This document shows positions 1 to 54,555 of a stretch of 64,000 bases of DNA, one piece after another. Both the position numbers and the translations under genes were made by a program. The DNA comes from an uncultured Peptococcaceae bacterium (GTDB lineage: Bacteria; Bacillota; Dehalobacteriia; UBA4068; UBA4997). The DNA is taken from assembly GCA_964569265.1 (NCBI GenBank), contig CAZMTO010000002.1:6102-70101 (forward strand). The letters are read 5' to 3'. Positions within the stretch are counted from its first letter, which is position 1. Each line of letters begins with the position of its first letter. A model generated the notes under the pieces. That model saw only the letters and a program-made list of their open reading frames with translations, searched no databases and was not told where the DNA came from.

Positions 1-3000
1 TACGAAGGCGATAGCTGGGTAAGCAAGTTCTGGGGCGAAAGCACATCTATGGTGGGCTACGCCAAAAACAACGCTTGGGTACTTAGTGCCCAGGAAGCTG
101 TAGCTGATAACGATACCCTGACTTTGTATGTTCTTAAAGATACCACGCAGTATTCCGATCTGCTTACCTGGTTTGATAAGGACAGCTACAACGCAACTGC
201 CGGTACAGCCAAAAGCTTTACCGTAAATGGTGTTAACCTTATGGGCTCCGGTGATAAGAACCCCGCCGTTGCCAAGCCGGCCGGCGCAACCATTAAGGTG
301 TATAATGCCGAAGGCACCGAGCTTGAAGCATTGGCCACCACAACCGATACCAACGGTATGTTTAAGTTGACCATACCTTATAACGGCACCTACACGGTAG
401 TTGTCAGCGGCACTTGCAGCTACACAATGTCCGGCGGTTATTATGACGGCGAAACCAGAACCGATGCGCCTGTTGTACCCACCCGCTGCACTGTTGTGGC
501 AAGCGGCGGCCAGGATGCTCCGGCAAAACCGGTTACCCCCACCTTTGGCACCAACCTTACCGGCGGTGTTGTAATGTATGTTAAGGGTGATACGGCAACA
601 GCCCTTACCGTTGCCGCTACCGTTACCGATGAAGGTACCTTGAGCTATAAATGGCAAAAGAGTACCAACGGCACCGATTGGACAGATATTGCCGATGCTG
701 CAACTGCCAGCTACACCCCGGCAACCGATGCTTTGGGTACGGTTTATTACCGTTGCGTGGCTGTTAATACCTTGGGCGGCCAAACCGCTATGGCTAACAG
801 CGCTGCCGTACAGGTAGAAGTTTATGACGAAACGATGAAAGGCCGCGGTACCGCTGATGACCCGTATGTTATCCGCACCGAAGCCGACCTGCTGGCCATA
901 AATAAAAACCTGGCAGCACATTATATCTTAAAGGCAGATATTGCCCCCGCTACCTGGCAAAGTGCTATTGCCTCTACCGGCAGCACCGCCTTTACCGGCA
1001 CCTTAGACGGTAACGGCCATACCATTACTTTGCCGCAGGGCGCAACGGCCGGTCTTATCGGCAACGGCAATGCCACTACTGTGGTTAAAAACCTGCGTTT
1101 GGTAGCACCCGGTGTAAGCAGCAGCCAAAAAATGCCTGCCCTGCTGTTTGACTACAAATCTGCCGGCGGCATAAACGTTTATAACTGTGCGGTTATTGGT
1201 ACGCTTAATGTAACCAACAGCAGCGCTACCTATGCCGGCGGTATAATAGCACGTGTAAGCAACAACAATGTAAATGTTAAAAACTGCTACGCAGCAGTTA
1301 CCATTAACCCCGGAGAAAGCAGTGCCAAGTGCGGCGCTCTGTTTGGCGTGGTATCTTATGGCAAGGTAAGCGATGTTTACTACGACAGCACCCTTATGGC
1401 TAACGGTGTGGGCGATACCGGCAAGGCAGAACCTGTTGGTATGGCTACAGCCGATTTGAAGCTGGCTGCCGAAACCTTGAACAAAAACAAGCCGGAGGGT
1501 ATGCTTAGCTGGCAAAATGCTGCTGATGATTACCCGGTATTTGGCGAACACGCCTTTGTACAAAGCGGCAGTGTAAGCATAACCGGTGACTTAAAGGCCG
1601 GTGCAACCGTTACTGCTGTTGACAATTTGACCGGCACCGGTACCAGAAGCTATAGCTGGTATAAGGTAGACGGTAATGGCAAAGAAACTCTGATAGAAAA
1701 TGCAACTGCCAAGGATTATACCCTGACTGCGGCCGAAGTAGGTTACAAGGTTAAGGTTGTTGTAGCTGTGGCAAATGCTCTGGGCGGCAACACCGATTAC
1801 ACCACCGATTCGGCGGTAGCATCTGATAAGCTGGTAAACGTAACCTTTAAGGTAACCCCGGCAGATGCTAATGTATTGGTAGTAAATTCGGCCGGCATAA
1901 TAGTGAGCAGCGGCCAAACCACAGTAAGTCTGGCGGCAGAAAGCAGCTTTAAGTATTATGTTGGTAAAAACGGCTACACACCGGTAGCTAAAACCCTTAC
2001 CACCGGCACTGCCGACAGCACCGAAACCGTTGCTTTGGCAGCTAAAAAACTGCCCGGCTTCAGCAGCGAAGAAACCTATAATATGCTTATCGGCAACATC
2101 AGCAAGCTGCCCAACTTCCCCACCAGTGTAGACGAAGCTGTGTTAAAGTGGTGTGTACCGGTTGGTACCAACTATAGCCCCGGTGAGCCTACCAACCCGG
2201 TATTTGTGGGCGATGACCTGTTTATGGCCGGTAATGTTAAAGCCGAAGACGGCAACGGCTACTTTATTAAAAAGCTTGACCCCGCTACCGGCAAGGTGCT
2301 TAAAAAAGTTCAGTTAGAAACTAACGTTAACTACACCTACAACTACTTCTTAACTACGTCGGAAGATATGTTGTTTATTATGACCAAAACGGGCGTAGAA
2401 GCTTACGACACCGATTTGAACAGACTGTGGGTAAGTGATAAGATGCCCGGCTCTCAGGGCCTGTGCCCCATCAACTATTCCGACGGTTATGTTTACGGCG
2501 GCACCTGTATGGCTAATACCTCGGTATTCTTCTGCCTTAGCGCTGCCGACGGTTCTCTGGTATGGCAAAATGCCCCCGATGTTGGCAGTGGCAGAGAAAC
2601 CGGTCATTATTGGGCCGGCGGCTGTATCATCGGTGATTATGTAGTTTATGGTTCTGACGGCGGCCGCATTTATGCAGCCAACAAATACACCGGTAAAATT
2701 GCATCTACCGTAGATGTTGCTACCGGCGCCAATGTTCGCAGCTCTGTTGCGTATGATAACGGCAAAATTTACTTTACCAGCACAGACGGTTATGTTTATG
2801 TTGCAAACTTTGATCAAACCAACGGCCAAATCAGCGACCTTAAATCGGCACTGGTTGGCATAAAGGCAGAAGGCGGCGGCTTTGGCGGCACTACCACCGC
2901 TACCCCGGCAATTTACAACAACCGCCTGTATGTAGGCTCCAGCAGCTATTTTGCTGTATTTAATGCCACCACGCTGGAAAATATTTATCGCACCGAACAA

Positions 3001-5682
3001 AAGCACGGCACCCTGCGTGATTTGCGTTTGGTAGCAGACGACGCTAACAAGTGTGTATATGCTTTTGCAACCTATTACACTACGCCCGGCGGTTTGGTAA
3101 TGTACACCGATAAAGCAGACCAGACAACTCCTTCGGCAGAATCTGACTTTGGTATCTTTATGACGGATACAACCAAGCAGTACGGCGCATCTATGCCGAT
3201 ATTTGGCCCGGACGGTACAATTTATGCCAGCAACGATAAAGGTTATCTTTCTGCCTACATTAAGCCGGCGGCATACCTTACCGGTTTAACGGCAGATGTT
3301 GGTAAATTCTCGGCTGAATTTGACAAAAAGGTAATGCAGCACGAGCTGGTTGTGCCGGTTGGTACTAAAGAAGTTACCCTGAACATTACTGCCGATGATG
3401 GTGCTGCTGTTACTGTTGACGGCAAGGAATTGCAGGGTAAAACCTACAAGGTGGCCTTGGCAGATGAAGCTGCTAACGTAACTATTGGTGTTGCCAAAAA
3501 TAACTGCGAGCTTACCTATAAGATTGCTATCCGTGCAATCCATACTGATAATTCGATTAGTGTGGCTACCAGCACCAGCAACAACATCGCTATAGACACC
3601 AAGGCAATCAGCGCTTATGATGGCAAAAACAATGTATATGTTATCACCGGCGGCAACGATGATATCCGTATCTGGTTGGCTCCCACCGATGCCAAGGCTA
3701 CTATGACTGAACCCCAGATACTTTCCGGTACCACCAGGTTCTACGATGTTACCAGCCAGAACGTTTATAACGGTGTGGCATATCCGTGGCGTACCTATCA
3801 TAGCGAGCCGGTATACCCGATTGTAATAACCACAACTATTACTGCCGAGGACGGCACCAGCGCACCGTATTATGTTTTGGCTATAAGTGATGCTGCCTAT
3901 GACGGCAAAACTGCTTATAAGTTTGGTATCAGCCTTAACAAAACAGAGCTTGCTCTTAAGAAAAATACCGATGAAGCACTTGTAGCAAACGTAGCATACC
4001 TGGGCGACGCCCCGACCGTTACCTGGACAAGCAGCGAACCGACTGTTGCCGAGGTTGACGCAACCGGTAAAGTAACCGCTAAAAGCGAGGGTACTGCTGT
4101 GATTACCGCAGCAATAGCTGAAGATATGACCGCAACCTGCACGGTAACCGTTACGGCGGCCGGCAGCACTGGCGGTGGCGGCACCGGCGGCGGCACGGTA
4201 GAAAAGACCGTACCCGTTTATGTTACCTACAGCAGTGAAGGCCAGATAGCCGAGGGTAAGGACGGTACCCTGCTTTATAAGGTGCCCATTGAAGCCCGCG
4301 ACGTTGACGGCGACAAAAAGATAACTATGGCCGATGCCTTTGTGGTTTTGCACGAACAATACTACGAGGACGGCGTTGACGGCATAGTAGTTGGCGAAAC
4401 CGGTTGGGTTAGCACCTTCTGGGGCGATTCTTCGTCGAACTTTGGCTATGCTAAAAACCACAAGTGGACAGACGTTGCCGGTTCGGTAAGCATCAGTAAG
4501 GGCGACCTGCTGGATATATACCTGCTGGCAGATATTACGGAATATTCTGATCTGCTTACGTGGTTTGATCAGGACAGCTATACCGCCAAAACCGGCACTG
4601 CCAAAACCTTTACCGTAAAGGGTGCCAACATCTTTAAGTCCGGCCCCAGCAGCTTGGCTACTGCCTACCCGGAAAATGCCGATGTTACGGTATTTGATGA
4701 GGACGGCAATGATGTTTTGACGACAAAAACCGATAAAAACGGCCAGTTTAAGCTGACATTTGCTGATCCCGGCCTGTACACTGTTTTGGTAGACGGTACC
4801 TGTGCTTATTCGGCCAAGGGTGAATTTGGCGCGGTGGACTACAGCGATGCTACCGTTGTTCCCACTCGCTGCACTGTTTCGGTAAGCGGCACTTCTACCG
4901 GCGGTTCTATCGGTGGCGGCAGTGATACCGACACCAAGTACACTGCGGCTGACGTAAAAGACCTGATCGACAAGATTGGTACCGTTACCAAAGACAGCAA
5001 GTCCGCAATCGAGAAGGCACGTGAGGCTTATGACTCCCTGACGGCTGCCCAGAAGAAGAACGTTACCAACTACGACAAGCTGACCGCCGCTGAAAAAGCT
5101 TATACCGAGCTTACCGGCGAGAAGATCGATACCAATAAGCTGCCGTTTACCGACGTAGCAAAGGGCGCTTGGTACTACGACGCGATTAAAGCAATGTACG
5201 ATAAGGGCCTGATGAACGGCGAAAGCGAAACCAAGTTTATGCCGAACAACAAACTGAGCCGTGCAATGCTGGTAACTATTCTGTACCGTATGCAGAACGA
5301 ACCCAATGTTAGCACAAACGCATTGTTCAACGATGTTGCTAATGGTCAGTGGTACACCAAGGCTGTAGCCTGGGCTAGCGCCAACAACGTTGTTAATGGC
5401 GTAGGCGAAGGTAAGTTTGCTCCCAACGACAGCGTAACCCGTCAGGAAATGGCAGCAATGCTGTACCGTTACGCTAAAGCTACCGGTATGGACACTACCG
5501 CAACCGCTTCTCTGAACGGCTTCAAGGATAGCGCCAAGGTAGCTAATTGGGCAACCGATGCTATGAAGTGGGCAGTTGGCAGCGGCCTGATGAAGGGTAA
5601 TGATGACAACACCATCAACCCGATGGGCACTGCAACACGTGCGGAAGTAGCAACTGTGATTATTCGCCTGCTTAGCAAGTAG
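1..5682 (+). CDS. 5'-truncated giant SLH-anchored cell-surface protein. Modules: DUF4430-like plus transthyretin-like module x2, Ig-like, GLUG/beta-helix-like, PQQ-like beta-propeller, cadherin-like, Big_2, helical hairpin, 3 SLH.
   Basis: Frame 1 is open from nt 1. Residues before the first Met (YEGDSWVSKFWGESTS) align with the internal repeat ETGWVSTFWGDSSSNFGYAKN (~4390), so the N-terminus lies off-window. Motifs: Ig-like SYKWQ..YYRC (~529-825); GTADDPYVI.. GLUG-like region (~840-1480); BamB/PQQ-like propeller repeats (~2140-3260); Big_2 TWTSSEPTVAEVDATGKVTAKSEGTAVITA (~3930-4160); DUF4430-like (~4210-4527). Three SLH motifs: FTDVAKGAWYYDAI, FNDVANGQWYTKAV, FKDSAKVANWATDAM (~5140-5679). 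Confidence 0.85.
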   Translation, partial: YEGDSWVSKFWGESTSMVGYAKNNAWVLSAQEAVADNDTLTLYVLKDTTQYSDLLTWFDKDSYNATAGTAKSFTVNGVNLMGSGDKNPAVAKPAGATIKVYNAEGTELEALATTTDTNGMFKLTIPYNGTYTVVVSGTCSYTMSGGYYDGETRTDAPVVPTRCTVVASGGQDAPAKPVTPTFGTNLTGGVVMYVKGDTATALTVAATVTDEGTLSYKWQKSTNGTDWTDIADAATASYTPATDALGTVYYRCVAVNTLGGQTAMANSAAVQVEVYDETMKGRGTADDPYVIRTEADLLAINKNLAAHYILKADIAPATWQSAIASTGSTAFTGTLDGNGHTITLPQGATAGLIGNGNATTVVKNLRLVAPGVSSSQKMPALLFDYKSAGGINVYNCAVIGTLNVTNSSATYAGGIIARVSNNNVNVKNCYAAVTINPGESSAKCGALFGVVSYGKVSDVYYDSTLMANGVGDTGKAEPVGMATADLKLAAETLNKNKPEGMLSWQNAADDYPVFGEHAFVQSGSVSITGDLKAGATVTAVDNLTGTGTRSYSWYKVDGNGKETLIENATAKDYTLTAAEVGYKVKVVVAVANALGGNTDYTTDSAVASDKLVNVTFKVTPADANVLVVNSAGIIVSSGQTTVSLAAESSFKYYVGKNGYTPVAKTLTTGTADSTETVALAAKKLPGFSSEETYNMLIGNISKLPNFPTSVDEAVLKWCVPVGTNYSPGEPTNPVFVGDDLFMAGNVKAEDGNGYFIKKLDPATGKVLKKVQLETNVNYTYNYFLTTSEDMLFIMTKTGVEAYDTDLNRLWVSDKMPGSQGLCPINYSDGYVYGGTCMANTSVFFCLSAADGSLVWQNAPDVGSGRETGHYWAGGCIIGDYVVYGSDGGRIYAANKYTGKIASTVDVATGANVRSSVAYDNGKIYFTSTDGYVYVANFDQTNGQISDLKSALVGIKAEGGGFGGTTTATPAIYNNRLYVGSSSYFAVFNATTLENIYRTEQKHGTLRDLRLVADDANKCVYAFATYYTTPGGLVMYTDKADQTTPSAESDFGIFMTDTTKQYGASMPIFGPDGTIYASNDKGYLSAYIKPAAYLTGLTADVGKFSAEFDKKVMQHELVVPVGTKEVTLNITADDGAAVTVDGKELQGKTYKVALADEAANVTIGVAKNNCELTYKIAIRAIHTDNSISVATSTSNNIAIDTKAISAYDGKNNVYVITGGNDDIRIWLAPTDAKATMTEPQILSGTTRFYDVTSQNVYNGVAYPWRTYHSEPVYPIVITTTITAEDGTSAPYYVLAISDAAYDGKTAYKFGISLNKTELALKKNTDEALVANVAYLGDAPTVTWTSSEPTVAEVDATGKVTAKSEGTAVITAAIAEDMTATCTVTVTAAGSTGGGGTGGGTVEKTVPVYVTYSSEGQIAEGKDGTLLYKVPIEARDVDGDKKITMADAFVVLHEQYYEDGVDGIVVGETGWVSTFWGDSSSNFGYAKNHKWTDVAGSVSISKGDLLDIYLLADITEYSDLLTWFDQDSYTAKTGTAKTFTVKGANIFKSGPSSLATAYPENADVTVFDEDGNDVLTTKTDKNGQFKLTFADPGLYTVLVDGTCAYSAKGEFGAVDYSDATVVPTRCTVSVSGTSTGGSIGGGSDTDTKYTAADVKDLIDKIGTVTKDSKSAIEKAREAYDSLTAAQKKNVTNYDKLTAAEKAYTELTGEKIDTNKLPFTDVAKGAWYYDAIKAMYDKGLMNGESETKFMPNNKLSRAMLVTILYRMQNEPNVSTNALFNDVANGQWYTKAVAWASANNVVNGVGEGKFAPNDSVTRQEMAAMLYRYAKATGMDTTATASLNGFKDSAKVANWATDAMKWAVGSGLMKGNDDNTINPMGTATRAEVATVIIRLLSK

Positions 5683-6020
5683 AACCGCAATAGCGGCACA
5701 TCTGCTGTGTCATATAATTTCTCGCTTGTCGGTGTACCATCTGTACGCCTCTGGCGACTCGAAATTCTATTCCTTGCATCTGTACCACTCTTGCAATTCT
5801 ATTAGGGTGGTGCAGGGCAATGTTGCGGTGTCATATAATTTCAATCAAGGCTGCCTGCCAAGGTATACAGGGCGGTGGGCGGGAATAGATAATCCTTTAT
5901 TCAGCCTTGATTGAAAAATTTTCAAACACTTGCGCCGCGGTGCGAAAATAATAATAAAAACGGAGTTAGGCTTTGCGGCATAGCTCCGTTTTTTTATAAA
6001 AATGCCGGTAATTTTGCAAA
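4930..6020 (+). repeat. Copy 1 of a ~1.1-kb dispersed direct repeat: helical-hairpin plus 3xSLH coding end, non-coding 3' module and terminator.
   Basis: Aligns base-for-base by eye with 23465-24593. The encoded C-termini are near-identical (DTKYTAADVKDLIDKIGTVTKDSK...RLLSK). The repeat continues through the stop codon to AAAAATGCCGGTAAT.TTGCAAA. Confidence 0.9.
5960..5996 (+). terminator. Rho-independent terminator of the first giant SLH gene.
   Basis: ACGGAGTTAGGC..GCATAGCTCCGT hairpin followed by T7. Copy 2 (24528-24564) carries compensatory/wobble changes. Confidence 0.8.
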
Positions 6021-6059
6021 GGCATGGCATTAGATCGGTAAAAAAATTTAATAATGCAG

Positions 6060-6097
6060 TCAGAGCTGTGCCAAGTGGGTGCGGCTCTGATTTTTTT
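6060..6097 (+). terminator. Second terminator-like hairpin.
   Basis: CAGAGCTGTGC / GTGCGGCTCTG stem (11 bp, 3 G-U wobbles), 7-nt loop, then T7. Confidence 0.5.
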
Positions 6098-6129: not shown

Positions 6130-6159
6130 TTGTTTTTTTTTTTTTTTTGATGTATCATT
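6130..6159 (+). promoter_or_regulatory. Candidate sigma-A promoter whose spacer is a T17 homopolymer.
   Basis: TTGTTT (6130-6135), an 18-nt spacer consisting almost entirely of the T run 6133-6149, then TATCAT (6154-6159). It lies ~35 nt upstream of riboswitch P1. Confidence 0.4.
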
Positions 6160-6192
6160 AGATTAAAGCACTAAAATCGACAAATTTCATAC

Positions 6193-6397
6193 GCAGTTAA
6201 GTGTCGCTATGGGTGGTAAAAGTCCATAGTGGTGAAAAGGGAAGTCCGGTGAAAATCCGGTACGGGGCCGCCGCTGTAACGGTTGCTTCATCAAGGGTGA
6301 AAGCCCGCCATTGCTCTGCTTGGGTGCAGGGTGAGAAGGTTAGATGAAGCTGTGTAGCTAATGCTATAACCTAAAGTCAGAAGACCTGCTTAACTGT
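6193..6397 (+). promoter_or_regulatory. Cobalamin (B12) riboswitch aptamer.
   Basis: P1 is CAGTTAAG (6194-6201) paired with CTTAACTG (6389-6396). Conserved core: GGGAAGTCCGGTGAAAATCCGGTACGGGGCCGCCGCTGTAACGG (6238-6282). 3' element: AGTCAGAAGACCTGC (6375-6389). These match the RF00174 consensus features as I remember them. Confidence 0.85.
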
Positions 6398-6457
6398 TGG
6401 GCTTGTACCTGCGCACAAGGGGCAAGCCGCAATTTTTTGTATACGGTAAAAACGGCA

Positions 6458-6491
6458 CCGCTATCAAGGTTCACTTGGTGGCGGCTTTTTT
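6458..6491 (+). terminator. Riboswitch expression-platform terminator (second of two tandem candidates).
   Basis: CCGCTATCAAG / CTTGGTGGCGG stem, GTTCA loop, then CTTTTTT. An earlier candidate, GGCTTG..CAAGCC plus T6, sits at ~6399-6440. Confidence 0.65.
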
Positions 6492-6562
6492 GTGCCAAAA
6501 ATCTGCCGTGGCTTTAGGGCGCGGCAGTTAAAATAGATACATAAAAATTATTAGGGGGAACA

Positions 6563-9500
6563 ATGATGAAAACTAAAGCCTGGCTAAAAAAATGCCTATG
6601 CTATGTGTTGATGTTGGCCATGATATTATCGGCCGGGTGGCCGACAGGTGTTGCTATGGCGGCAGACAACGTGCTGGGTGTAAGCTTTACGCAGGTAGAT
6701 GACGATTTGGTGCAAGCGAGCCTTTTGCCGCAAGCTGACGATGCGGTGGTGCTGGCGTCCGGGGATGAGTATGATCCTGGCGAATTGGTGCGTGTTTCGA
6801 TTGTTTTAGAAGATGCAGCGACTATTCAGGCGGGCTACAGTATTAACGCTGTTGCCGAAAACGTCCGCGCTATGAGCTACCGTCAAAAGCTGAAGGCGGA
6901 GCAAAACCAAATAAAGCGCGCCATAGAAGCCGCCCTGGGTGATGACCTGAAAGTAAAGTGGAACCTGACTCTGGCTGCTAACCTGATGTCGGCTGAGGTA
7001 GAAGTTGGGCAGATAGATACCATACGCGCTGTAGACGGTGTAAAGGATGTTGTTATCGAGCAGCAGTATCAGCCGATGGCAACCGCCCAAACCGATGATG
7101 TTGCCCGGCCGCAGATGACGATATCTACCGGTATGACCGGTATGCAGAACGCCTGGCAAAATGGGTATACCGGCGCAGGTTCTCGTGTGGCAATAATTGA
7201 CACCGGTATAGATGTTGATCACCAGTCTTTTAATGGGGCGGCGTTAGAATACGCTTTGGCTAAAAACGCTGCTGCCAAGGGTGTTGACGAAGCGGAGTAT
7301 CTGGCCGGGCTTAATTTGCTGGATGCTGCCAAGGTAGATGCTGTGAGTTCGGAATTAAACGTTACCGCTATTAACAACCAGGCTAACGGCACTAATATGT
7401 ATCACAGCAGCAAGCTGCCCTTTGCCTTTAACTATGTAGATCAATCTTATGAATATGTTGACCACAACAAAGATTCGCAGACCGACCACGGCTCTCATGT
7501 GGCCGGTATTGCGGCGGCTAACCGTTATATAGAAAAAGACGGCGCTATGGCAGATGCCATAGATACGGTAATGGTGGCAGGGCAGGCACCTGATGCCCAG
7601 CTGCTGGTGATGAAGGTTTTTGGTATGAACGGCGGCGCTTATGATTCGGACTATATGGCCGCTATTGAAGATGCCATTGTTTTGGGAGCCGATTCTATCA
7701 ACCTTTCTCTGGGCAGCAGCGCCAACGGTTTTTCTACTGCCGGTGTTTATCAGCAAATTATGGAAAGCCTTACTGATGCCGGGGCGGTAGTGTGTATGGC
7801 AGCCGGCAACGATGGTAATTTTGCCGAAAATGCCTATACTGCCAAAAGCACGGGTGGTTCCGGTTTGCTTTATACCGATGACGTTATGTACAGCCATATG
7901 GGCAGCCCCAGTTCTTTTACTAATTCTATGTCGGTTGCTTCGGTAGATAACCAGGGCATTATCAGTGATTCGTTTTTATCGTTTGGGCAGGGCGATGACC
8001 TGTTTACGGTAGGTTACAGCGAAACTCTTTACAACGATATGAAGTCTATGCGCAGCCTTGATACCGCTGCCGAGGGCGGTACAGAGTATGAATTTGTGCT
8101 GGTGCCGGGCCTTGGCTACCGCGAGGATTACGATGGTATTGATGTAAGCGGCAAAATTGCCTTTGTATCGCGTGGGGATACACCTTTTTATGAAAAAGCC
8201 ACCATTGCCGTTGAACAGGGGGCAATCGCCACTGTTATTTATAACAATGTAGGCGGCAGTATGGGTATGGATATGACTGACTATCACGAAGCAGCACCGG
8301 CGGTATCTATTACCAAAGACGATGCCGAAAAAATTAAGGCTATGGCCGATGAGCTGGTAAGTGATATTGACGAGATATACTACGGCGGTAAAATGCGTGT
8401 TAATGGCACTTTAAGCCTTATAGCGGGTGACAAAAACAGCTACACCATGAGCTCCTTCAGTTCTTGGGGCAGTACCGGAGATTTGGCCTTAAAGCCGGAA
8501 ATAACCGCACCCGGCGGCAGTATTTATTCGGTAAATGGGTCGCAGACAGCACCCGATGGTTACAAAATTAACAGCGGTACATCTATGGCTACGCCGCAGG
8601 TGGCCGGTATAGCTGCCGCTATTGGTCAATACATAAGAGAACACAAGCTGACCGAAAAATTCGGACACAGTGCGCGGCAAATTGCTCAGTCGCTGCTTAT
8701 GGCTACGGCTATACCGCTAAAGGATGACAATGGCAACTATTACCCCCTGTTGCAGCAGGGTGCCGGCTTGGCTAACGGCGAAAACGCCATAAATGCCGGG
8801 GCTTATATTTTGATGAGCGAGGGTGCAAGCCCCAGTTGGCAGGACGGCAAAGTAAAGGCCGAATTGGGTGATGACCCTGAGCGCACCGGTGTTTATGAAT
8901 TTGGCTTTACACTTTATAATACCGAAAACATCGCTAAAACCTATCAGCTTGCAGCCGAATTGTTTACGCAGGCTGTAGCCGAATATCCGTCGGCACCCGG
9001 CTTGACAACTACGGCGGAATATGCCTTAAAAACCACAACACCGCTGGATTCTTCTGCTACCTTTACTGCCAACGGCACCAATATTGGCAGCACGCTTGCT
9101 GTTCCTGCCAATGGCAGTGTAACGGTGCAGGCCAAGGTTAGTGTAACACCCAAGGGTAAGGCCTGGCTGGAAGAACACTACCAAAAGGGCACGTATATTC
9201 AGGGGTTTGTATTTGCCCGACCGCTGGCTAATGCCGACGGAGCAATAAGCGGCAGTACGCTGCACATTCCGCTGTTTGCCTTTTACGGTAACTGGACTGA
9301 CCCGGCAATGTATGATGCGGTAAACTGGCAAAACGGCAGCAGCACCGGCACGTATTCCACACCGTTTATCTCCGATGCTTCTCGTACCAGTTACGCAGTT
9401 AACTATGACGTTAATTCTCCGTTGAATACAGGTTCGGCGGGCGAGACCAGCTATATCGGCACTAATCATCTGGTGATGAACAATGCCAACGGGGTGGCTT

Positions 9501-12500
9501 ATATTTTGGGTGGTAACCCGTTAGTAAAAGATGCTGTATATTTGCCGGAGCGTAACGCGGTAAGCAGCCAATCTACTGCTGCCCAGTGGGAATTTTTGCC
9601 GCTGCGTGACAGTGTTGTAAAAAAGGCACAGATAAAAAATTTAACGGCTAATACTGTTTTGCAGGAAAACACCATTGAATCGGCAGACCTTGGCGTTTGG
9701 TATAGCAAAAACGACGGTTATTGGCAGGGCGGTGTAAACACTATGCCGCTAAACCAAAGTCTGGCTGCCGTAAACGAAGGTGAACAGATAGAATTCAGCT
9801 TTGTTCGCCTGCCGGAATATTACGCTGCCGGCAAAATGGGAGAAAACAGCCCGGTAGGCACGGGCGCCCTGCTAAGCATTACGGCGGTGGTAGATGAAGC
9901 CAACCCCCAAACTCAGGATATAACCTATAACAGCAACGACAACACCCTTACTGTAAAGGCAGCAGACGAAAACTACATTGCGGCGGTTGCACTTTACAGC
10001 CGCGACGGTCAAAGGGTTATTGCCTATACCGGTGCCGATGAAACGCTGACTAAGGGGCAGGCGGGCAACTTTGTTATTGCTCTGCCCAACAAGATAGACG
10101 GTGAATATTTGTTGCAGGTTTATGACTACGCTATGAATACCGCCACCTACCGCATTGCTTTGTCTGATACTGCTATAAGCTACACCGGTGCTATGCTTGC
10201 CTATGATATGACCGATAAAGCGTGGGTGCAGGTAGACGAACAGTCGGCGCGGTTGGGTACTATTGCCAAAACTCACAGCTACACGGCGGCCACTGCTGTA
10301 GGCAGCACTGTTTATGCTATTGCCTATGGCACCGAGCTTTATGCGCTGGATATTTATCAGCCGCAAAACAGCACGCTGCTGGGCGATACCAATATCAATA
10401 TAGTAGATATGGCGTATAACGCGCAGGACGGCAGCCTGTACGGTGTAAGTGACAACAGCAAGCTGGTAAAAATAAATATGACAACCGGCAAGGCTATAGA
10501 GATTGGCACCCTGCCGATAAATACCAACACCTTAGCCTGCGATACCAAGGGTAATTTTTACAGCAACCTTTACGGCACCGGCAAGGTATACACCTACACG
10601 TTAGATGCTTTAGCTGCCGGTGATGCTGCTTATGATCTTAACGGTGACGGCGCTGTAAATATGGCCGATGTTCAGGCTATGCTGGATAACATTACCGGCA
10701 AAAAGGTGTCGGCGGCGGCTATTGATATAAACGGTGACGGTTTGACCGATACTTACGATGCGTATCTGCTGCTTGGCAAGCTGCCGGGTACGGTAAAACT
10801 GGTGGCCGATACCGGTATTGTCAGCAAATATATGCAGGCAATGGAAGCCGACCCCAACGATGATACCCTGTATTGGGCAAGCTACAGCACGCAGCCGGTA
10901 AACAGTACCGAAATTGGCTTTGCATATATGTTTAAAATAAACACGGCAACCGGCAAGTATGTAAATTGTGGTGATTTTGATAACCAGCTAAGCAGCCTGG
11001 TGATACTGGACAAGCACGCCGGCAGCGGTTATGCACCGCTTTATGACCTTGCGGATATTGCCAAGGCCGAGGCTGCCGTTGCAGACCTTGGCAGCAAAAC
11101 CTACTTAAATTCTATGGCCGAAGCTGCTGCTTTGGCGGTAAATATGGGCGTAGACAACAGCCTTAAAGACGACGCACCCAAAACCGTAACGGTGAGCATA
11201 ACAGCCGGGCAAAATATTACCAATGCTTTGTACAGGCTTAGCTACGGTGACGATATGCAGTTTGTGTCGGCGGCAAGCCCTGCCGATGTTGTAAGCATTA
11301 AGGCGGATAACAGTACATTGTGTCTGGCGGCGGCATCTGTTAACGGTGTTGCGGCCGGTGAGGCTATTGCCACCCTGACGTTTAGCACCAAAGCCTGTGC
11401 CGGTGATGTTGAGCTTGCCCGTTTAGAGGAAAACACCGCACATACCGATATTACCGAAGCTTTGATAAGTGATTCTCATATGTGGGGCAGTTGGCAGGTT
11501 ACCCAAGCGGCTACCTGTGTGGTCGATGGTGTAAAAACCCGCACCTGTGAGCTTTGCGGCAAGGCACAGACGGAAGCTATGGCTCGTGAAACCACCGCAC
11601 ATAGCTGGGGAGATTGGCAAACTGCGGTTGCCGCTACCCCAACCGGGCCCGGAGAAAAATACCGTGTGTGCGAAGAATGTGACCGACAGCAAACCGGTTA
11701 TATTTTGCCGGATACTATGTCGGCTGCCGAGCAGGACAGTGCCTTTAACCGTGTTTGGGCGCGCAAGCTTACCTTAAACTATGCGCTGATTACCGGCGCG
11801 GGCGTAAACAAGGTAGAGGCTCTGACGGCAGAAAACGATACCACGATGCGTTATTTGGTAACATTGGCGGCTGCAACCGGGGCAGATGCTCAGTTCCATA
11901 TACATATGGACCCGATTGAGCTGGTGGCCAGCGGTTTTGGTTCGGCGCTTAAAGCCAATAAAGTAGACCGTGTTACCTGGGATGATAATGATACTGAATA
12001 TGATGTGGTGCTTAGCAATGGGCTGGCGTGCCTTACGGTTTATTGCTACGCTAACGAAACCGAATGTACTCCGGTAGAAATATATTTTGCAATAGGTGAT
12101 GAAGGTGAAAATATCGGTAGCCTTAGCACTGCCGATGTGCCGGGCTTTGGTATAAATCATCTGGAAATTTGGGAAACAAGCGGTGTAAACAAGGTATATT
12201 ACATCAGCAATGATGACGAAACCGAAAATGAATGTTATATATGGCTGGATACAGCTACCCTCGATAATGCTGTTATGCAGATTAACCCGGTTCCGGACAG
12301 TGCTGCGGCAACTACCGTAAGCAGCCCCCTGTGGAGCAGCGGCCAAAAGCTTGGTGAAAACGGTATTCAACTGGCGCTTAAAAACGGTACTGCCAACGTT
12401 ACAGTTTCGGTAGACATAAATAGCTGGGGTAATGTAACCCACCGTAATTATAACCTGCACTTTAGCAATCACGCCAACCAGCCGCCTACGGTCCAAAACG

Positions 12501-12946
12501 CTGCCGGCAAGGCGCGGGTAACATTAGGCAACGCCTTTAGCCTTAACCTTGATACAGTGTTTGCCGACCCGGATGGTGATACCCTGAGTTACACCTATAC
12601 TGTAAACGGCGGTGAGGCGATGGCTGCCGCTGCGGACTTTAGCTTTGTGCCGCAGGCTACCGGCGATTATGTTTTGGTATTTACGGCTGACGACGGCCAA
12701 ACCGCCGGTAATAGCACCTATACGCTAACTTTAACGGTAGTTGATACGGTTATAGGTGATGTTAACAGCGACGGTGCGGTAAACGCCAAAGATGCCGCCG
12801 TGCTTAAACGCTATATTGCCAAGTGGGCAAACCTGACTATAGACCTGACAGCGGCTGACGTTAATGCCGACGGTGATATAAACGGTAAGGATACCGCTAC
12901 GCTTAAACGTTATATTGCCAAGTGGGCCGGTGTTAACCTTGGCTGA
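6563..12946 (+). CDS. Secreted S8 subtilase (cell-envelope proteinase type, PA-domain insert) with propeller-like, Cys-rich and cadherin-like modules and two dockerins.
   Basis: SD is GGGGGA. Signal peptide: MMKTKAWLKKCLCYVLMLAMILSAGWPTGVAMA. Triad motifs: VAIIDTGID, DHGSHVAGI, SGTSMATPQVAG. PA-like GKIAFVSRGD..TVIYNN. Dockerin EF-hand pairs at ~10621-10790 and ~12755-12943. Confidence 0.9.
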   Translation: MMKTKAWLKKCLCYVLMLAMILSAGWPTGVAMAADNVLGVSFTQVDDDLVQASLLPQADDAVVLASGDEYDPGELVRVSIVLEDAATIQAGYSINAVAENVRAMSYRQKLKAEQNQIKRAIEAALGDDLKVKWNLTLAANLMSAEVEVGQIDTIRAVDGVKDVVIEQQYQPMATAQTDDVARPQMTISTGMTGMQNAWQNGYTGAGSRVAIIDTGIDVDHQSFNGAALEYALAKNAAAKGVDEAEYLAGLNLLDAAKVDAVSSELNVTAINNQANGTNMYHSSKLPFAFNYVDQSYEYVDHNKDSQTDHGSHVAGIAAANRYIEKDGAMADAIDTVMVAGQAPDAQLLVMKVFGMNGGAYDSDYMAAIEDAIVLGADSINLSLGSSANGFSTAGVYQQIMESLTDAGAVVCMAAGNDGNFAENAYTAKSTGGSGLLYTDDVMYSHMGSPSSFTNSMSVASVDNQGIISDSFLSFGQGDDLFTVGYSETLYNDMKSMRSLDTAAEGGTEYEFVLVPGLGYREDYDGIDVSGKIAFVSRGDTPFYEKATIAVEQGAIATVIYNNVGGSMGMDMTDYHEAAPAVSITKDDAEKIKAMADELVSDIDEIYYGGKMRVNGTLSLIAGDKNSYTMSSFSSWGSTGDLALKPEITAPGGSIYSVNGSQTAPDGYKINSGTSMATPQVAGIAAAIGQYIREHKLTEKFGHSARQIAQSLLMATAIPLKDDNGNYYPLLQQGAGLANGENAINAGAYILMSEGASPSWQDGKVKAELGDDPERTGVYEFGFTLYNTENIAKTYQLAAELFTQAVAEYPSAPGLTTTAEYALKTTTPLDSSATFTANGTNIGSTLAVPANGSVTVQAKVSVTPKGKAWLEEHYQKGTYIQGFVFARPLANADGAISGSTLHIPLFAFYGNWTDPAMYDAVNWQNGSSTGTYSTPFISDASRTSYAVNYDVNSPLNTGSAGETSYIGTNHLVMNNANGVAYILGGNPLVKDAVYLPERNAVSSQSTAAQWEFLPLRDSVVKKAQIKNLTANTVLQENTIESADLGVWYSKNDGYWQGGVNTMPLNQSLAAVNEGEQIEFSFVRLPEYYAAGKMGENSPVGTGALLSITAVVDEANPQTQDITYNSNDNTLTVKAADENYIAAVALYSRDGQRVIAYTGADETLTKGQAGNFVIALPNKIDGEYLLQVYDYAMNTATYRIALSDTAISYTGAMLAYDMTDKAWVQVDEQSARLGTIAKTHSYTAATAVGSTVYAIAYGTELYALDIYQPQNSTLLGDTNINIVDMAYNAQDGSLYGVSDNSKLVKINMTTGKAIEIGTLPINTNTLACDTKGNFYSNLYGTGKVYTYTLDALAAGDAAYDLNGDGAVNMADVQAMLDNITGKKVSAAAIDINGDGLTDTYDAYLLLGKLPGTVKLVADTGIVSKYMQAMEADPNDDTLYWASYSTQPVNSTEIGFAYMFKINTATGKYVNCGDFDNQLSSLVILDKHAGSGYAPLYDLADIAKAEAAVADLGSKTYLNSMAEAAALAVNMGVDNSLKDDAPKTVTVSITAGQNITNALYRLSYGDDMQFVSAASPADVVSIKADNSTLCLAAASVNGVAAGEAIATLTFSTKACAGDVELARLEENTAHTDITEALISDSHMWGSWQVTQAATCVVDGVKTRTCELCGKAQTEAMARETTAHSWGDWQTAVAATPTGPGEKYRVCEECDRQQTGYILPDTMSAAEQDSAFNRVWARKLTLNYALITGAGVNKVEALTAENDTTMRYLVTLAAATGADAQFHIHMDPIELVASGFGSALKANKVDRVTWDDNDTEYDVVLSNGLACLTVYCYANETECTPVEIYFAIGDEGENIGSLSTADVPGFGINHLEIWETSGVNKVYYISNDDETENECYIWLDTATLDNAVMQINPVPDSAAATTVSSPLWSSGQKLGENGIQLALKNGTANVTVSVDINSWGNVTHRNYNLHFSNHANQPPTVQNAAGKARVTLGNAFSLNLDTVFADPDGDTLSYTYTVNGGEAMAAAADFSFVPQATGDYVLVFTADDGQTAGNSTYTLTLTVVDTVIGDVNSDGAVNAKDAAVLKRYIAKWANLTIDLTAADVNADGDINGKDTATLKRYIAKWAGVNLG

Positions 12947-12980
12947 TAATATTTAAGACAATATTTAAGGAGGAAGTGCA

Positions 12981-14192
12981 ATGATAAAATTAAAGCGTTT
13001 TTTGCCGTTTTTGCTGGCGGTGGCCCTTATGCTGGGGCTTATGGTGCCTGTAGCTTCGGCAGCCGATACTACCGGGCAAATAACGGTATCTGAGGCTGCG
13101 GGCAAACCCGGCGATACTGTTACAGTAACCGTAAATTTGGCTAAAAACCCCGGTATTATTGCCGCAGTTTTAGAAGTTGGCTATGACGAAAGCCGCTTAA
13201 AGCTTGTGGCCGTAAAAGACGGCGCCCTGCTGGCAGACAGTACTTTTTCGGACAGCTTGGCACGCAACCCCTATGTTTTAAGCTGGAACGATGCTTTGTC
13301 CAGCAGTAACATAACCACTACCGGTGTGCTGGCTACCCTTACTTTTGAAATTTTAAGTGATGCCAAGGCCGGCGAAGCCGCAGTAACAGTGGATTTTACC
13401 CCCGATAATCTGTTTGACTGGGAGTTAAACAACGTGCCGTTTACTGCAACTGACGGCGTGGTAAAGGTAACTGCCAAGGGCAGCAGCACGGTTAGCGGCG
13501 GCGGTGGCGGCGGTGCTGTTACTCCATCTAAGGATAATAATAAAGCCGATAATATCAAGGCCGATGAAAACGCCGACAGCAAAAAAGATGACGATCTGCC
13601 GGCGGGTAATTTGTATAAAAAATATACCGATTTAGCTGATGATGGCTGGTATCGCAGCGGTGTGGAATATATGCTGAACAACGGCTATATGAACGGTGTT
13701 TCGTCTACAGCGTTTGACCTTGACGGTGCCGTTACCCGCGCACAGTTTGTAACTATTTTGTACCGTTATGCCGGCAGCCCCGCAGTTAGCGGCAGCAGCC
13801 CCTTTGCCGATGTAAGCAGCAATGCCTGGTATGGCAAAGCAGTTATGTGGGGTGCTGCCAACGGCGTGGTAAAGGGTGTTAGCGCTAACCGCTTTGACCC
13901 CGATGCACCGCTTACCAGAGAACAACTTGCTACCCAGCTATACCGTTATGATAAAGCAGCGGCCCTGGCGGTTGACCACCTTAAAGCTTACAGCGATGCA
14001 GCCAAAATAAGCGACTATGCCAAGCAGGCTATGAACTGGGCTGTGGGCGGCAAAATCATCAACGGCATTACCGCTAATGTGCTTGCCCCGCAAAACACTG
14101 CCACCCGCGGGCAAACCGCCGTGCTGCTTAGCCGCTATTTTACGGCGGCTTCGGCGGTGCCGGTACCGCAAACCCCGGCAGAAAGTAAATAG
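12981..14192 (+). CDS. Anchoring scaffoldin-like protein: signal peptide, one cohesin, Gly/acidic linker, three SLH repeats.
   Basis: SD is AAGGAGGAAG. Cohesin-like sequence TGQITVSEAAGKPGDTVTVTVNLAKNPGIIAAVLEVGYDESRLKL...GVLATLTFEILSDAKAGEAAV (~13075-13470). SLH motifs: YTDLADDGWYRSGVEYM, FADVSSNAWYGKAVMWG, YSDAAKISDYAKQAMNWA. Confidence 0.85.
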   Translation: MIKLKRFLPFLLAVALMLGLMVPVASAADTTGQITVSEAAGKPGDTVTVTVNLAKNPGIIAAVLEVGYDESRLKLVAVKDGALLADSTFSDSLARNPYVLSWNDALSSSNITTTGVLATLTFEILSDAKAGEAAVTVDFTPDNLFDWELNNVPFTATDGVVKVTAKGSSTVSGGGGGGAVTPSKDNNKADNIKADENADSKKDDDLPAGNLYKKYTDLADDGWYRSGVEYMLNNGYMNGVSSTAFDLDGAVTRAQFVTILYRYAGSPAVSGSSPFADVSSNAWYGKAVMWGAANGVVKGVSANRFDPDAPLTREQLATQLYRYDKAAALAVDHLKAYSDAAKISDYAKQAMNWAVGGKIINGITANVLAPQNTATRGQTAVLLSRYFTAASAVPVPQTPAESK

Positions 14193-14327
14193 GTTTATAA
14201 GCTTAGTTTATAAGTATTGAAGATATATAATACCTTGGCAAGGGGGCGATGCGTTACAGATAATGTCGGAGTACGGATGTTTGTAAATTTTAAGTTGCAG
14301 CAAAAAAGATTAAGAAAGGAAATTGTT

Positions 14328-19415: not shown

Positions 19416-19541
19416 GAAGCGCAAAGCTTTATCCACTGCGGGCACGGGCAATAGTCTGTGCCCGCCTTGTGGGTTATTTTGATAATTGCGGCAGGGTGCC
19501 ATCGGGTACGTTTGCCTGCACCCATTTTAAGGAGAATTTTT

Positions 19542-21599: not shown

Positions 21600-21643
21600 G
21601 CAGCAGCTTGTACAGTGGTAAAAAACACTTGGAGAAATAGTTT

Positions 21644-24217: not shown

Positions 24218-24593
24218 AATTGCAATAGCGCCAGAAGGGACAACTGCACACCATCTGCTGTGTCGAGCTTGCATTTTTCTCGCGACGCGCACTATCTGTA
24301 CGCCTCTGGCGACTCGAAATTCTATTCCTTGCATCTGTACCACTCTTGCAATTCTATTAGGGTGGTGCAGGGCAGGGCTGCGGTGTCATATAATTTCAAT
24401 CAAGGTTGCCTGCCAAGGTATACAGGGTGGTGGGCGGGAATAGATAATCCTTTATTCAGCTTTGATTGAAAAAACTTACAAACACTGCGCCGCAGGGCAA
24501 GGCTGCTGTGTGAAAATGACAAAAAAAACGGAGTTAGGCTTTGCGGCTTGGCTCCGTTTTTTTTGTGTAAAAATGCCGGTAATATTGCAAAAA
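23465..24593 (+). repeat. Copy 2 of the ~1.1-kb dispersed direct repeat.
   Basis: See 4930-6020. An 81-nt stretch (24294-24374) is identical to 5739-5819. Confidence 0.9.
24528..24564 (+). terminator. Rho-independent terminator closing the giant-protein operon.
   Basis: ACGGAGTTAGGC / GCTTGGCTCCGT 12-bp stem followed by T8. Confidence 0.8.
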
Positions 24594-24826
24594 TAATGGT
24601 TGGATGGTGTGTGTGGCAGTTTTTTTTGCATTTTGCAGCGGATATTTTATGCTTGCTGCAAACTTATTTGTTGTATTCGGCGGATAAATGTGGTAAAATT
24701 TGCTTAACAGAACCTTACATATTATATAGGCACGTTTTTGTAAGGTTGCACCCGGGCTTTTTAGCGGCTTGTCCGACCGCTTTAACAGTATAATAAAACA
24801 GCATAAAATAAAAGGAGTTGATCGTT

Positions 24827-48815: not shown

Positions 48816-48941
48816 ATAAAATAGCCTCAAAAATAATAATATTGTGACTGTACATAAGATAATTTGATTATACGCCACAAATTGCAAATAAGCAAGCAAT
48901 TTTGCCGATGGTGTAAATATTCGGCGGATAAATGATGATAA

Positions 48942-48970
48942 TTGACAAAACCAAAGCTTTGGGCTATAAT
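48942..48970 (+). promoter_or_regulatory. Consensus sigma-A promoter of the DUF4430-ECF operon.
   Basis: TTGACA (48942-48947), 17-nt spacer, TATAAT (48965-48970). Confidence 0.6.
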
Positions 48971-49082
48971 TTTAGGTGTGTGCCTTTTTAAAAGTTTGTA
49001 TGCACTTTTGCAATGATTTTTGGGGAAAAATCATTAGGGGAAAAAAGAAAGATACAAAATTTTTTATAAGGAGATTGATAAA

Positions 49083-53525: not shown

Positions 53526-53548
53526 CCGGTAAATAAATCACAAAAAAA

Positions 53549-53587
53549 ACAGAGAGCGTACCGCTTGAGGCGGCGCTCTCTGTTTTG
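53549..53587. terminator. Bidirectional terminator.
   Basis: ACAGAGAGCG / CGCTCTCTGT stem flanked by A8 upstream and T4 downstream. Confidence 0.75.
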
Positions 53588-53599
53588 CTGTTTGGCGGT

Positions 53600-54511: not shown

Positions 54512-54555
54512 ATAAAGCACCGTCCGTTAGCATAAATTTTTTGATACACACAGCC

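Follow-up and report, generated by a model that had tools for sequence, protein, structure and literature searches.

We analyzed a stretch of 64,000 nucleotides from an uncultured Peptococcaceae bacterium (contig CAZMTO010000002.1), referred to here at its full length as the window, in which a cobalamin (B12) riboswitch lies in front of a gene for a giant secreted subtilase. An earlier note, made by a model from the letters of this DNA, had already read a riboswitch in front of a 2,127-amino-acid subtilase gene, which, as we find, it directly precedes on the same strand, and had taken this protease and scaffoldin operon for an atypical member of the B12 regulon. The subtilase gene is the first of five co-directional genes, separated by gaps of 35 to 135 nt, which together form an operon of ∼17.7 kb (6563-24217). 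A terminator scan gave no convincing internal terminator within 6563-24217, in agreement with the single ∼18-kb transcript that the note had assumed.

Scanning the window with Rfam cmscan yielded one riboswitch only, an RF00174 element whose match extends over the full model (positions 1 to 189 of 189) and scores above the gathering threshold of 31.5 bits (Table 1), so that the covariance-model check proposed in the note bears out the assignment. The two strands of the P1 helix, CAGTTAAG at 6194-6201 and CTTAACTG at 6389-6396, are present as the note quoted them, one base off the start it gave, and so are the conserved aptamer core (6239-6282) and the B12 box AGTCAGAAGACCTGC (6375-6389). The elements GGGAAGUCCGGUGAAAAUCCGG...GCCGCCGCUGUAA and AGUCAGAAGACCUGC, which P1 encloses, match the RF00174 consensus with high posterior probability. 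Judged by its sequence, the aptamer is an ordinary RF00174 member; it lies 156 nt 5′ of the ATG at 6563.

The proteins encoded by the operon carry the parts of a cohesin-dockerin assembly. The subtilase has a signal peptide, and its Peptidase_S8 domain (138 bits) retains DTG213, HGSH309-312, and GTSMA672-676 intact. It is followed by a cohesin-bearing SLH anchor, by an adaptor scaffold in which Pfam and BLASTP together find a divergent SLBB/DUF4430-like domain, fn3-like repeats, three cohesins, and a C-terminal dockerin, by a dockerin-bearing β-propeller from a family of more than 60 members, and by a second SLH anchor that contains a DUF4430 domain. In total, Pfam gave six cohesin matches, dockerins on three of the proteins, and SLH repeats on two; the best Protein Data Bank (PDB) match of the dockerin is a serine-protease double dockerin (8x39/8x3a). 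Type-I dockerins, cohesins, SLH-anchored scaffoldins, and an adaptor scaffold with a dockerin of its own are all shared with the cellulosomes and other cohesin-dockerin assemblies of Clostridia. However, no glycoside hydrolase or carbohydrate-binding module was found by Pfam in the five proteins, so the predicted complex is not a cellulosome: cohesin scaffoldins, dockerin subunits, and SLH anchoring are present, but a protease, a propeller, and SLBB domains make up the cargo, and the operon is under a B12 riboswitch.

Table 1. Features of the riboswitch-operon region and of the transporter locus (window positions; aa, amino acids).
Feature	Position	Strand	Evidence and remarks
Candidate promoter of the riboswitch unit	6130-6158	+	TTGTTT, 17 nt, TATCAT; TG just 5′ of the −10; read from sequence
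Cobalamin riboswitch aptamer	6183-6407	+	Rfam RF00174, 70.4 bits, E 2.4e-15
H1, first terminator-like hairpin	stem 6396-6433, U-tract 6433-6438	+	Candidate ligand-responsive terminator
Conserved linker ATACGG-N-AAAA-ACGGC-N	6441-6457	+	Kept in L001; unique in the window
H2, second, canonical intrinsic terminator	11-bp stem 6458-6484, loop GUUCA, U6 6486-6491	+	Terminator scan and fold
H3, stable hairpin without U-tract	6503-6527	+	−16.4 kcal/mol, z −3.5; ends 25 nt before the Shine-Dalgarno sequence
Shine-Dalgarno sequence AGGGGG	6553-6558	+	Sequence; start codon ATG at 6563
Gene 1, secreted 2,127-aa subtilase	6563-12946	+	Pfam: S8, inserted PA, fn3_5, PKD, C-terminal type-I dockerin
Gene 2, 403-aa anchor	12981-14192	+	Pfam: one cohesin, 64.9 bits; SLH, 89.4 bits, three repeats
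Gene 3, adaptor scaffold	14217-19415	+	Open reading frame of 1,732 aa; called start 14328 gives 1,695 aa (start from L088)
Second, cryptic SLBB/DUF4430-like domain in scaffold	14853-15254 (residues 213-346 of the open reading frame)	+	BLASTP
Gene 4, Big_2, eight-bladed PQQ/BamB-type β-propeller, Ig-like domain, dockerin	19458-21599	+	Called start 19542 gives 685 aa
Gene 5, 857-aa anchor	21644-24217	+	Pfam: two cohesins, 106 bits; DUF4430, 51.2 bits; SLH, 116 bits, three repeats
DUF4430/SLBB core of gene 5	23072-23311 (residues 477-556)	+	Pfam PF14478, 51.2 bits versus cutoff of 23.8
Terminator-like hairpin CGGAG...CUCCG, then U8	24529-24564	+	Probable operon end; read from sequence
DUF4430 protein, CbiQ-like 314-aa protein, duplicated ABC ATPase, ECF S-component	49083-53525	+	Pfam; 25 kb from the operon

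The DUF4430 domain connects these proteins to B12. It corresponds to the cobalamin-binding β-domain of transcobalamin and is the C-terminal domain of that family (PMC4350170), and bacterial extracellular SLBB proteins were predicted to be B12 scavengers as early as 2007 (Burroughs et al. 2007, PMC1796856). The DUF4430 sequence of gene 5 had no match in the PDB, even at E 10, and a comparison of folds was therefore needed. For the AlphaFold model of this domain (predicted template-modeling score, 0.75; core predicted local distance difference test [pLDDT] above 90), Foldseek returned 19 PDB matches at E ≤ 1e-3, all of which are β-domains of transcobalamin, haptocorrin, or intrinsic factor or the Ruminococcus gnavus DUF4430 structure 3u7z. 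Template-modeling scores were 0.71 to 0.73 against the isolated human β-domain and 0.73 against 5np4; as modeled, the gene 5 domain has the β-grasp fold of the transcobalamin β-domain. Pfam misses the copy in the scaffold, which BLASTP aligns with the gene 5 domain at 27% identity over 138 amino acids (E 9e-10). The scaffold block is conserved at the N terminus of the orthologous scaffolds, among which the one in locus L092 gives a weak Pfam DUF4430 match. DUF4430 is thus found variously fused: to a propeller in P0188, a member of the gene 4 family, to the scaffold in L092, and to anchors. Following the SLBB domains there is a helical motif (…A-x-x-A-Y-D-x-L-T-x-x-Q/A-K…N-Y-x-x-L…), located at residues ∼600 to 680 of gene 5 and ∼370 to 430 of the scaffold, that recurs in many SLH surface proteins of gut metagenomes (loci L100-L151). 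In a metagenome scan with the scaffold N terminus, L098, whose upstream region is cut off, was the sole true relative among the matches, and the rest reflected the helical-linker motif Y-D-A-L-T-D-D-A-K.

For the propeller of gene 4, the AlphaFold model (pLDDT 88) has BamB and YxaL as its top Foldseek matches, and a sequence search against the PDB gave matches only in the dockerin and Ig regions. We considered a BtuG-like propeller and rejected it, since the top 50 Foldseek PDB matches are BamB, YxaL, tetrathionate hydrolase, and designed eight-blade propellers. The putative link of the propeller to B12 comes from its genomic context only.

A second locus of the window encodes what is, from its gene content, the probable transporter partner of the operon, a candidate corrinoid transporter of the energy-coupling factor (ECF) type (Table 1). 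Its DUF4430 gene (49083-49973) scores 65 bits and its S-component (PF07155) 55 bits with Pfam. The wider locus (47853-55596) has CobD/CbiB on the − strand, the ECF/DUF4430 block on the + strand, and then an aminotransferase on the − strand. The block is orthologous to the tail of locus L096 from another organism, with identities of 51% for the DUF4430 protein, 52% for the ATPase, 43% for the S-component, and 33% for the T-like protein; the L096 T-component corresponding to the 314-amino-acid protein of the window has a weak CbiQ match.

To reach loci from other organisms, homologs of the propeller protein were used, and orthology was established by tblastn. The gene set of the module has full-length orthologs at 35 to 55% identity in L091, L092/L093, L094, and L096. 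The scaffold is 35 to 37% identical over its full length in L091, L092, and L096, and gene 2 is 45% identical over its full length in L092. Orthologs of gene 1 of ∼2,100 amino acids head or precede the module in L092, L094, and L096. L092/L093 encodes a 2,128-amino-acid subtilase-dockerin, a cohesin-SLH protein, a cohesin protein, a 2,138-amino-acid cohesin-DUF4430-SLH scaffold, a propeller, and more, and L091 has a scaffold, a propeller-DUF4430-dockerin fusion, and a cohesin-DUF4430-SLH protein. In L094, the subtilase is followed by an SLH protein, the scaffold, the propeller, and cohesin-DUF4430, DUF4430-SLH, α/α-toroid-SLH, and DUF4430 proteins. L096 begins with a 2,111-amino-acid subtilase, a scaffold, a propeller, a cohesin-DUF4430 protein, an α/α-toroid protein, and a DUF4430 protein and continues with a CbiQ-like protein, a duplicated ABC ATPase, an ECF S-component, a second CbiQ-like protein, an AP_endonuc_2 protein, CobT, and CobU. 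In this locus, the surface module, the ECF transporter, and cobamide salvage genes are therefore contiguous on one strand. DUF4430 is present in every orthologous module, on different subunits.

The α/α-toroid proteins of L096 (13641-14666) and L094 (16007-17500) give weak prenyltransferase and squalene-cyclase matches. The α/α-toroid is the fold of the transcobalamin α-domain (PMC1796856), so the modules of L094 and L096 contain both transcobalamin halves as separate proteins; the operon of the window is without an α/α-toroid gene.

The nearest relative is found in L001/L002 (different sequencing runs), where the subtilase is 64 to 76% identical in the aligned segments. L001 has a riboswitch of its own (9609-9815; RF00174, 65.5 bits) directly 5′ of the orthologous subtilase, while its upstream neighbors differ: PNP_UDP_1 and a rib operon with an FMN riboswitch stand where the window has an SLH gene. 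The L001 subtilase appears to be a deletion fusion. Its open reading frame (10001-13056) joins subtilase residues 1 to 872 to scaffold residues ∼1334 to 1732, which comprise the last cohesin and the dockerin, with the dockerin called as a separate 52-amino-acid open reading frame; ∼11 kb of the operon is missing, and the riboswitch, propeller, and anchor genes remain. L088 to L090 (Logan SRR14160768, SRR22923250, and SRR14160767) represent the organism of the window in three public sequencing runs; their propeller protein is identical to that of the window and their operon layout is the same. Runs of the same accession series (SRR22923217/8) yielded the L001 relative. Among the matches listed, GTDB representative genomes held no close relative.

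Cobalamin riboswitches are also found at other surface loci with DUF4430. In L003, whose subtilase is ∼50% identical, the riboswitch is on a divergent DUF4430 gene that adjoins the subtilase, and L085 and L129 (116 bits) are unrelated surface DUF4430/SLH loci with a cobalamin riboswitch. L139 has one 9 kb 5′ of an SLH protein without a DUF4430 match. By contrast, all 14 non-module paralogous S8 loci that we examined were devoid of both module genes and a cobalamin riboswitch. A GTDB scan with the subtilase alignment gave, as the best among the matches listed, paralogs of 38 to 46% identity without module genes or riboswitch. P0095 was tried as a module subtilase and discarded, its locus being an S8 protease and an SLH protein amid housekeeping genes with no riboswitch.

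The leader between the aptamer and the subtilase gene holds two terminator-like hairpins with U-tracts (H1 and H2) and a third hairpin without one (H3), as the earlier note had read it, and its description of the expression platform as unusual is borne out by the succession of two terminators and H3 behind one aptamer. RF00174 riboswitches of Firmicutes that act through intrinsic terminators share with the present element the full-length aptamer, the B12 box, the site in the 5′ untranslated region (UTR), and a hairpin with a U-tract downstream, from which an OFF switch on an acquisition operon would be expected here. They differ in that the aptamer of the window is followed by two conserved consecutive terminators and a third hairpin, and in that the genes controlled here are a subtilase and cohesin-dockerin proteins rather than btu, cbi, or ECF genes.

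H1 folds with −17.5 kcal/mol into 14 pairs with a bulge and runs into T6 at 6433-6438. By itself it does not stand out (z −1.8; an equally good fold was reached by 13 of 200 shuffles), and the terminator scan did not call it. In partition-function folding, its pairing probability was 0.64 to 0.73 for the window but 0.13 for the longer transcript of L001, indicating that H1 has competing folds. H2 folds with −18.1 kcal/mol (z −3.5), a stability reached by none of 200 shuffles; it is the sole leader hairpin called by the terminator scan and the top-ranked terminator-like site on the + strand within 6400-24900, and its sequence is unique in the window. Its pairing probability was 0.98 to 1.0 in the window and L001 leaders, and its removal costs 14 to 18 kcal/mol. 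A-tract, hairpin, and U-tract in this order are typical of efficient terminators, and the A-tract at 6448-6452, in the conserved linker, can pair with the U-tract of H2, as it does in the minimum free energy fold. The 3′ part of the same linker is complementary to the aptamer core at 6256-6273. The Shine-Dalgarno sequence is largely unpaired in the computed folds, and translation is not obviously gated, which points to control at the level of transcription.

The window and L001 leaders are 80% identical, and both hairpins keep their structure and their tracts of 6 or 7 U's. Four pairs of H1 are maintained in L001 by double changes: a CG pair of the main stem has become UA, and CG, CG, and UA of the inner stem have become UA, UA, and CG. 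A conserved U7 tract follows them. Three flipped pairs maintain the stem of H2 (AU, AU, and UG to UA, UA, and GU). The features of an intrinsic terminator, namely, a G+C-rich hairpin, a U-tract, and a conserved structure, are thus found in H2 and also in H1, with the low z score of the latter as noted. At the place equivalent to H3, L001 has a hairpin of different sequence. A search of the post-aptamer leader for known RNA families gave chance-level matches only. Upstream of the aptamer, the window and L001 share the block TGTATCATT without a change. It would suit an extended −10 element, and TTGTTT lies 17 nt ahead of it, pointing to a promoter at 6130-6158, a site that the consensus promoter scan did not call. 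Among other riboswitch leaders before DUF4430 genes, that of L129 has a single terminator and that of L003 has none and looks translational, so the double terminator is specific to this lineage.

Because H1 has competing folds and H2 is essentially always formed, the models suggest that H1 is the likely ligand-responsive terminator and H2 a backstop that catches read-through. The earlier note took the tandem terminators as suggesting a very tight OFF state; with H2 formed in the models at a probability of ∼1.0 whatever the state of the aptamer, it would cut ON expression as much as OFF leakage, unless it is gated by ligand through a long-range pairing of the kind proposed below. There are three candidates for the passage of H2 in the ON state: H2 may be leaky and cap expression, its 5′ flank and arm may pair with the aptamer core when ligand is absent, or an antitermination factor may act; the two leader sequences from the window and L001 are insufficient to choose among them. 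As for the pairing with the core, the conserved 5′ flank and arm of H2, ACGGC-N-CCGCU, are complementary to the invariant aptamer core CCGG-N-ACGGGGCCGCC, and the predicted duplex has −13.8 kcal/mol in the window and −20.6 kcal/mol in L001, compared with −18.5 and −24.4 kcal/mol for the arms of H2 themselves.

Three other pairings were tried and not retained. A relay antiterminator in which the 3′ arm of H1 (AAGCCGC) would pair with that of H2 (GCGGCUU) has 7 bp in the window, and its complement was not seen in L001. The H2 5′ arm as a P2 mimic is based on a shared, co-varying hexamer (CGCUAU in the window, CCGCUG in L001). Its duplex reaches no more than −13.3 and −9.0 kcal/mol, respectively, and imposing it on the fold carries a penalty of +10 kcal/mol. 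A kissing contact between L5 and the H1 loop (GUGC/GCAC in the window, CUGUG/UACAG in L001) occupies different positions in the two leaders and is unsupported by them.

Terminator-like hairpins also occur in tandem at 5958-5996 and 6058-6092, between the upstream SLH gene and the riboswitch promoter, and paired terminators may be a habit of this genome that is not special to the riboswitch leader. The upstream gene (49-5682) lies outside the riboswitch unit and encodes a 1,877-amino-acid SLH protein with Ig-like domains and a weak β-propeller match. One of its Ig-like segments (residues ∼160 to 270) is ∼40% identical to the stretch that separates propeller and dockerin in the gene 4 orthologs of the related loci, and the protein may belong to the same surface apparatus as the operon. 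A direct repeat of ∼0.93 kb with 90% identity (5105-6035 and 23640-24600) brackets the riboswitch and the operon. Each copy comprises the C-terminal SLH module of an anchor gene, i.e., the 1,877-amino-acid gene ending at 5682 and the 857-amino-acid gene ending at 24217, together with ∼350 nt of 3′ UTR with a terminator hairpin. The hairpin that probably ends the operon sits within the UTR part of the repeat, shared with 5958-5996. This UTR part is conserved at least as well as the coding part, as it would be after a recent gene conversion or if it contained a conserved element.

Taken together, we consider it probable, with moderate confidence, that the five genes of this Gram-positive, gut-type bacterium build a B12-repressed, cell-wall-anchored extracellular complex for corrinoid capture. 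Transcribed from the promoter near 6130-6158, the riboswitch would turn the operon off by premature termination when corrinoid is plentiful, with H1 as the ligand-responsive stop and the stronger H2, with its A-tract, hairpin, and U-tract, catching what reads through. The complex would be held on the cell wall by cohesin-dockerin contacts between two SLH-anchored cohesin proteins, one of them with the transcobalamin-type DUF4430/SLBB domain, the adaptor scaffold with its three cohesins, dockerin, and second cryptic SLBB domain, and the dockerin-bearing cargo, namely, the giant subtilase and the eight-bladed β-propeller. The SLBB domains would bind B12 and hand it to the ECF transporter encoded 25 kb away, and the subtilase could plausibly free corrinoids from carrier proteins; in that case, the riboswitch would simply exert the usual negative feedback in a system for acquisition. 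What we infer here is corrinoid binding, the sequence of the hand-off, the role of the protease, and the gating of H1 and H2, and the release of protein-bound corrinoids by the subtilase is the most speculative step. A more specific version, in which, in gut or rumen Clostridia, an S-layer complex uses the subtilase to strip corrinoids from carrier proteins of host or microbes, such as haptocorrin, intrinsic factor, or corrinoid enzymes, the SLBB domains (perhaps with the propeller) relay them to the ECF transporter, and one aptamer may gate both H1 and H2, the latter through the pairing of its 5′ flank with the core, strikes us as possible but doubtful.

This bears on the claim of the earlier note that the operon is an atypical regulon member. 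A subtilase alone is indeed unusual as a riboswitch target, because the 14 paralogous S8 loci have no riboswitch. For the operon as a whole the claim falls, since it carries the DUF4430/SLBB domain of gene 5 and a second copy in the scaffold, and since the L096 module is contiguous with ECF, CobT, and CobU genes; in functional terms, it would be an acquisition system, the type of member most often met in B12 regulons, although of an unfamiliar make.

Several points weigh against a corrinoid-capture complex under riboswitch control. All of the support is computational, and our literature searches, whose coverage is incomplete, did not turn up a bacterial DUF4430 protein with published B12-binding data. 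That a riboswitch governs the module in its entirety is shown only for one lineage (window and L001), the 5′ ends of the modules in L091, L092, L094, and L096 being outside the loci. In L094, two opposite-strand genes (1473-4637; 508 and 489 amino acids, with no Pfam match) split the subtilase from the rest of the module (scaffold, propeller, and DUF4430 genes), and no riboswitch was found in this gap; the gene pair could be an insertion that split the operon. The ECF/DUF4430 locus of the window has no riboswitch, even at a permissive threshold, which is odd for paired loci, and a consensus TTGACA-17-TATAAT promoter lies upstream of it at ∼48943-48971. The subtilase family has many members outside a B12 context, and its role may be unrelated to B12 release; BtuG is absent from the 50 best structural matches of the propeller. 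Finally, no conserved antiterminator was found in the window and L001 leaders, and with H2 at ∼1.0 in the models this leaves the question of how transcription reaches the genes.

Some of these points feed an explanation in which the proteins form a proteolytic or adhesive cohesin-dockerin complex without a role in B12, used for protein foraging or attachment, with B12 serving as a cue and the tandem terminators keeping a costly transcript off. The first and largest gene does encode a subtilase of a family that is widespread without a link to B12, the propeller has a generic BamB/YxaL-type fold, and the ECF locus of the genome is separate and free of a riboswitch. Such a complex leaves aside, however, that the operon has two SLBB/DUF4430 domains, that DUF4430 accompanies every orthologous module fused to different subunits, that in L096 the module adjoins ECF, CobT, and CobU genes, and that other surface DUF4430 genes independently carry B12 riboswitches, and we judge it unlikely.

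Closer to even chances, although still short of them, is the idea that H2 is a constitutive attenuator, so that only H1 responds to ligand and H2 ends a fixed share of transcripts and caps expression in both states. This would fit its layout as a strong terminator, its near-complete pairing in both leaders and the high cost of removing it, and the finding that none of the alternative pairings examined is as strong as that of H2's own arms, while H1, unlike H2, has competing folds. On the other hand, H2 has a conserved 5′ flank and arm with complementarity to the invariant aptamer core, which could make it ligand dependent during cotranscriptional folding, and a strong unconditional terminator before the operon would be wasteful. 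Two successive terminators behind one aptamer, the second of which looks efficient and ligand independent, would also be compatible with a stand-alone B12-responsive small RNA that ends at H1 with ligand and at H2 without it, the operon having its own promoter between H2 and the ATG, where H3 and an AT-rich stretch precede the Shine-Dalgarno sequence. EutX/Rli55 is organized in this way: two terminators stand behind an adenosylcobalamin riboswitch, and the small RNA comes in a short and a long form. Here, in contrast to EutX/Rli55, a Shine-Dalgarno sequence and a long open reading frame follow within 75 nt, the scan detected no promoter-like site in 6485-6562, where a promoter would leave a 5′ UTR of less than 30 nt, no RNA family matches the post-aptamer leader, and no ANTAR-type double hairpin was seen by eye. 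The L001 riboswitch, moreover, still stands directly upstream of the same gene even though its neighbors differ. A small RNA of this kind is therefore highly improbable.

As a corrinoid-capture complex, the system has relatives among the SLBB proteins described by Burroughs et al. (PMC1796856), whose genes occur in operons with CbiO/CbiQ-type (ECF) transporters. Shared features are the secreted or surface location of SLBB domains, the linkage to such transporters, the fusions to Ig domains and sometimes to β-propellers, and paralogs that suggest possible surface complexes. The main text of that work makes no mention of cohesin, dockerin, peptidase, or riboswitch, and the differences lie there: in the window, SLBB domains are built into cohesin-bearing, SLH-anchored scaffoldins, and a giant dockerin-bearing subtilase heads the operon. 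Our full-text literature search, with incomplete coverage, likewise found no paper linking cohesin or dockerin to B12. For the combination of a cohesin-dockerin-SLH system without carbohydrate-active enzymes, transcobalamin-like SLBB domains, and a dockerin-bearing subtilase, no prior description was found.

Another point of comparison is the BtuG/BtuH/BtuJ relay of Bacteroides, whose loci are controlled by B12 riboswitches. In this relay, several extracellular proteins, one of them a β-propeller, capture corrinoid ahead of the transporter (PMC6143338, PMC10404256, PMC13616437), and the system described here plausibly works likewise, with extracellular capture and a propeller ahead of a transporter. 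No homology between the two was detected, though. The predicted binders are SLBB domains instead of BtuG, BtuH, or DUF4465, and SLH and cohesin-dockerin anchoring, an ECF transporter, and a protease take the place of lipoproteins and the TonB-dependent BtuB. Only the lipoprotein relays of Bacteroides have been characterized so far for extracellular capture, and according to a 2026 review, the Gram-positive case "remains entirely uncharacterized."

Competition for B12 and other cobamides shapes gut communities, and the operon offers a concrete, conserved, and directly testable candidate for Gram-positive corrinoid capture. Of smaller interest, for the mechanism of riboswitches, is the conserved double terminator behind a single aptamer. 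If our reading is true, cohesin-dockerin systems, familiar above all from the degradation of polysaccharides, would also be used for micronutrient capture, and bacterial relatives of the human B12 carriers would gain an experimental role. More tentatively, the complex may be a Gram-positive, nonhomologous counterpart of the BtuG/H/J relay, with a step of proteolytic piracy that has not yet been described.

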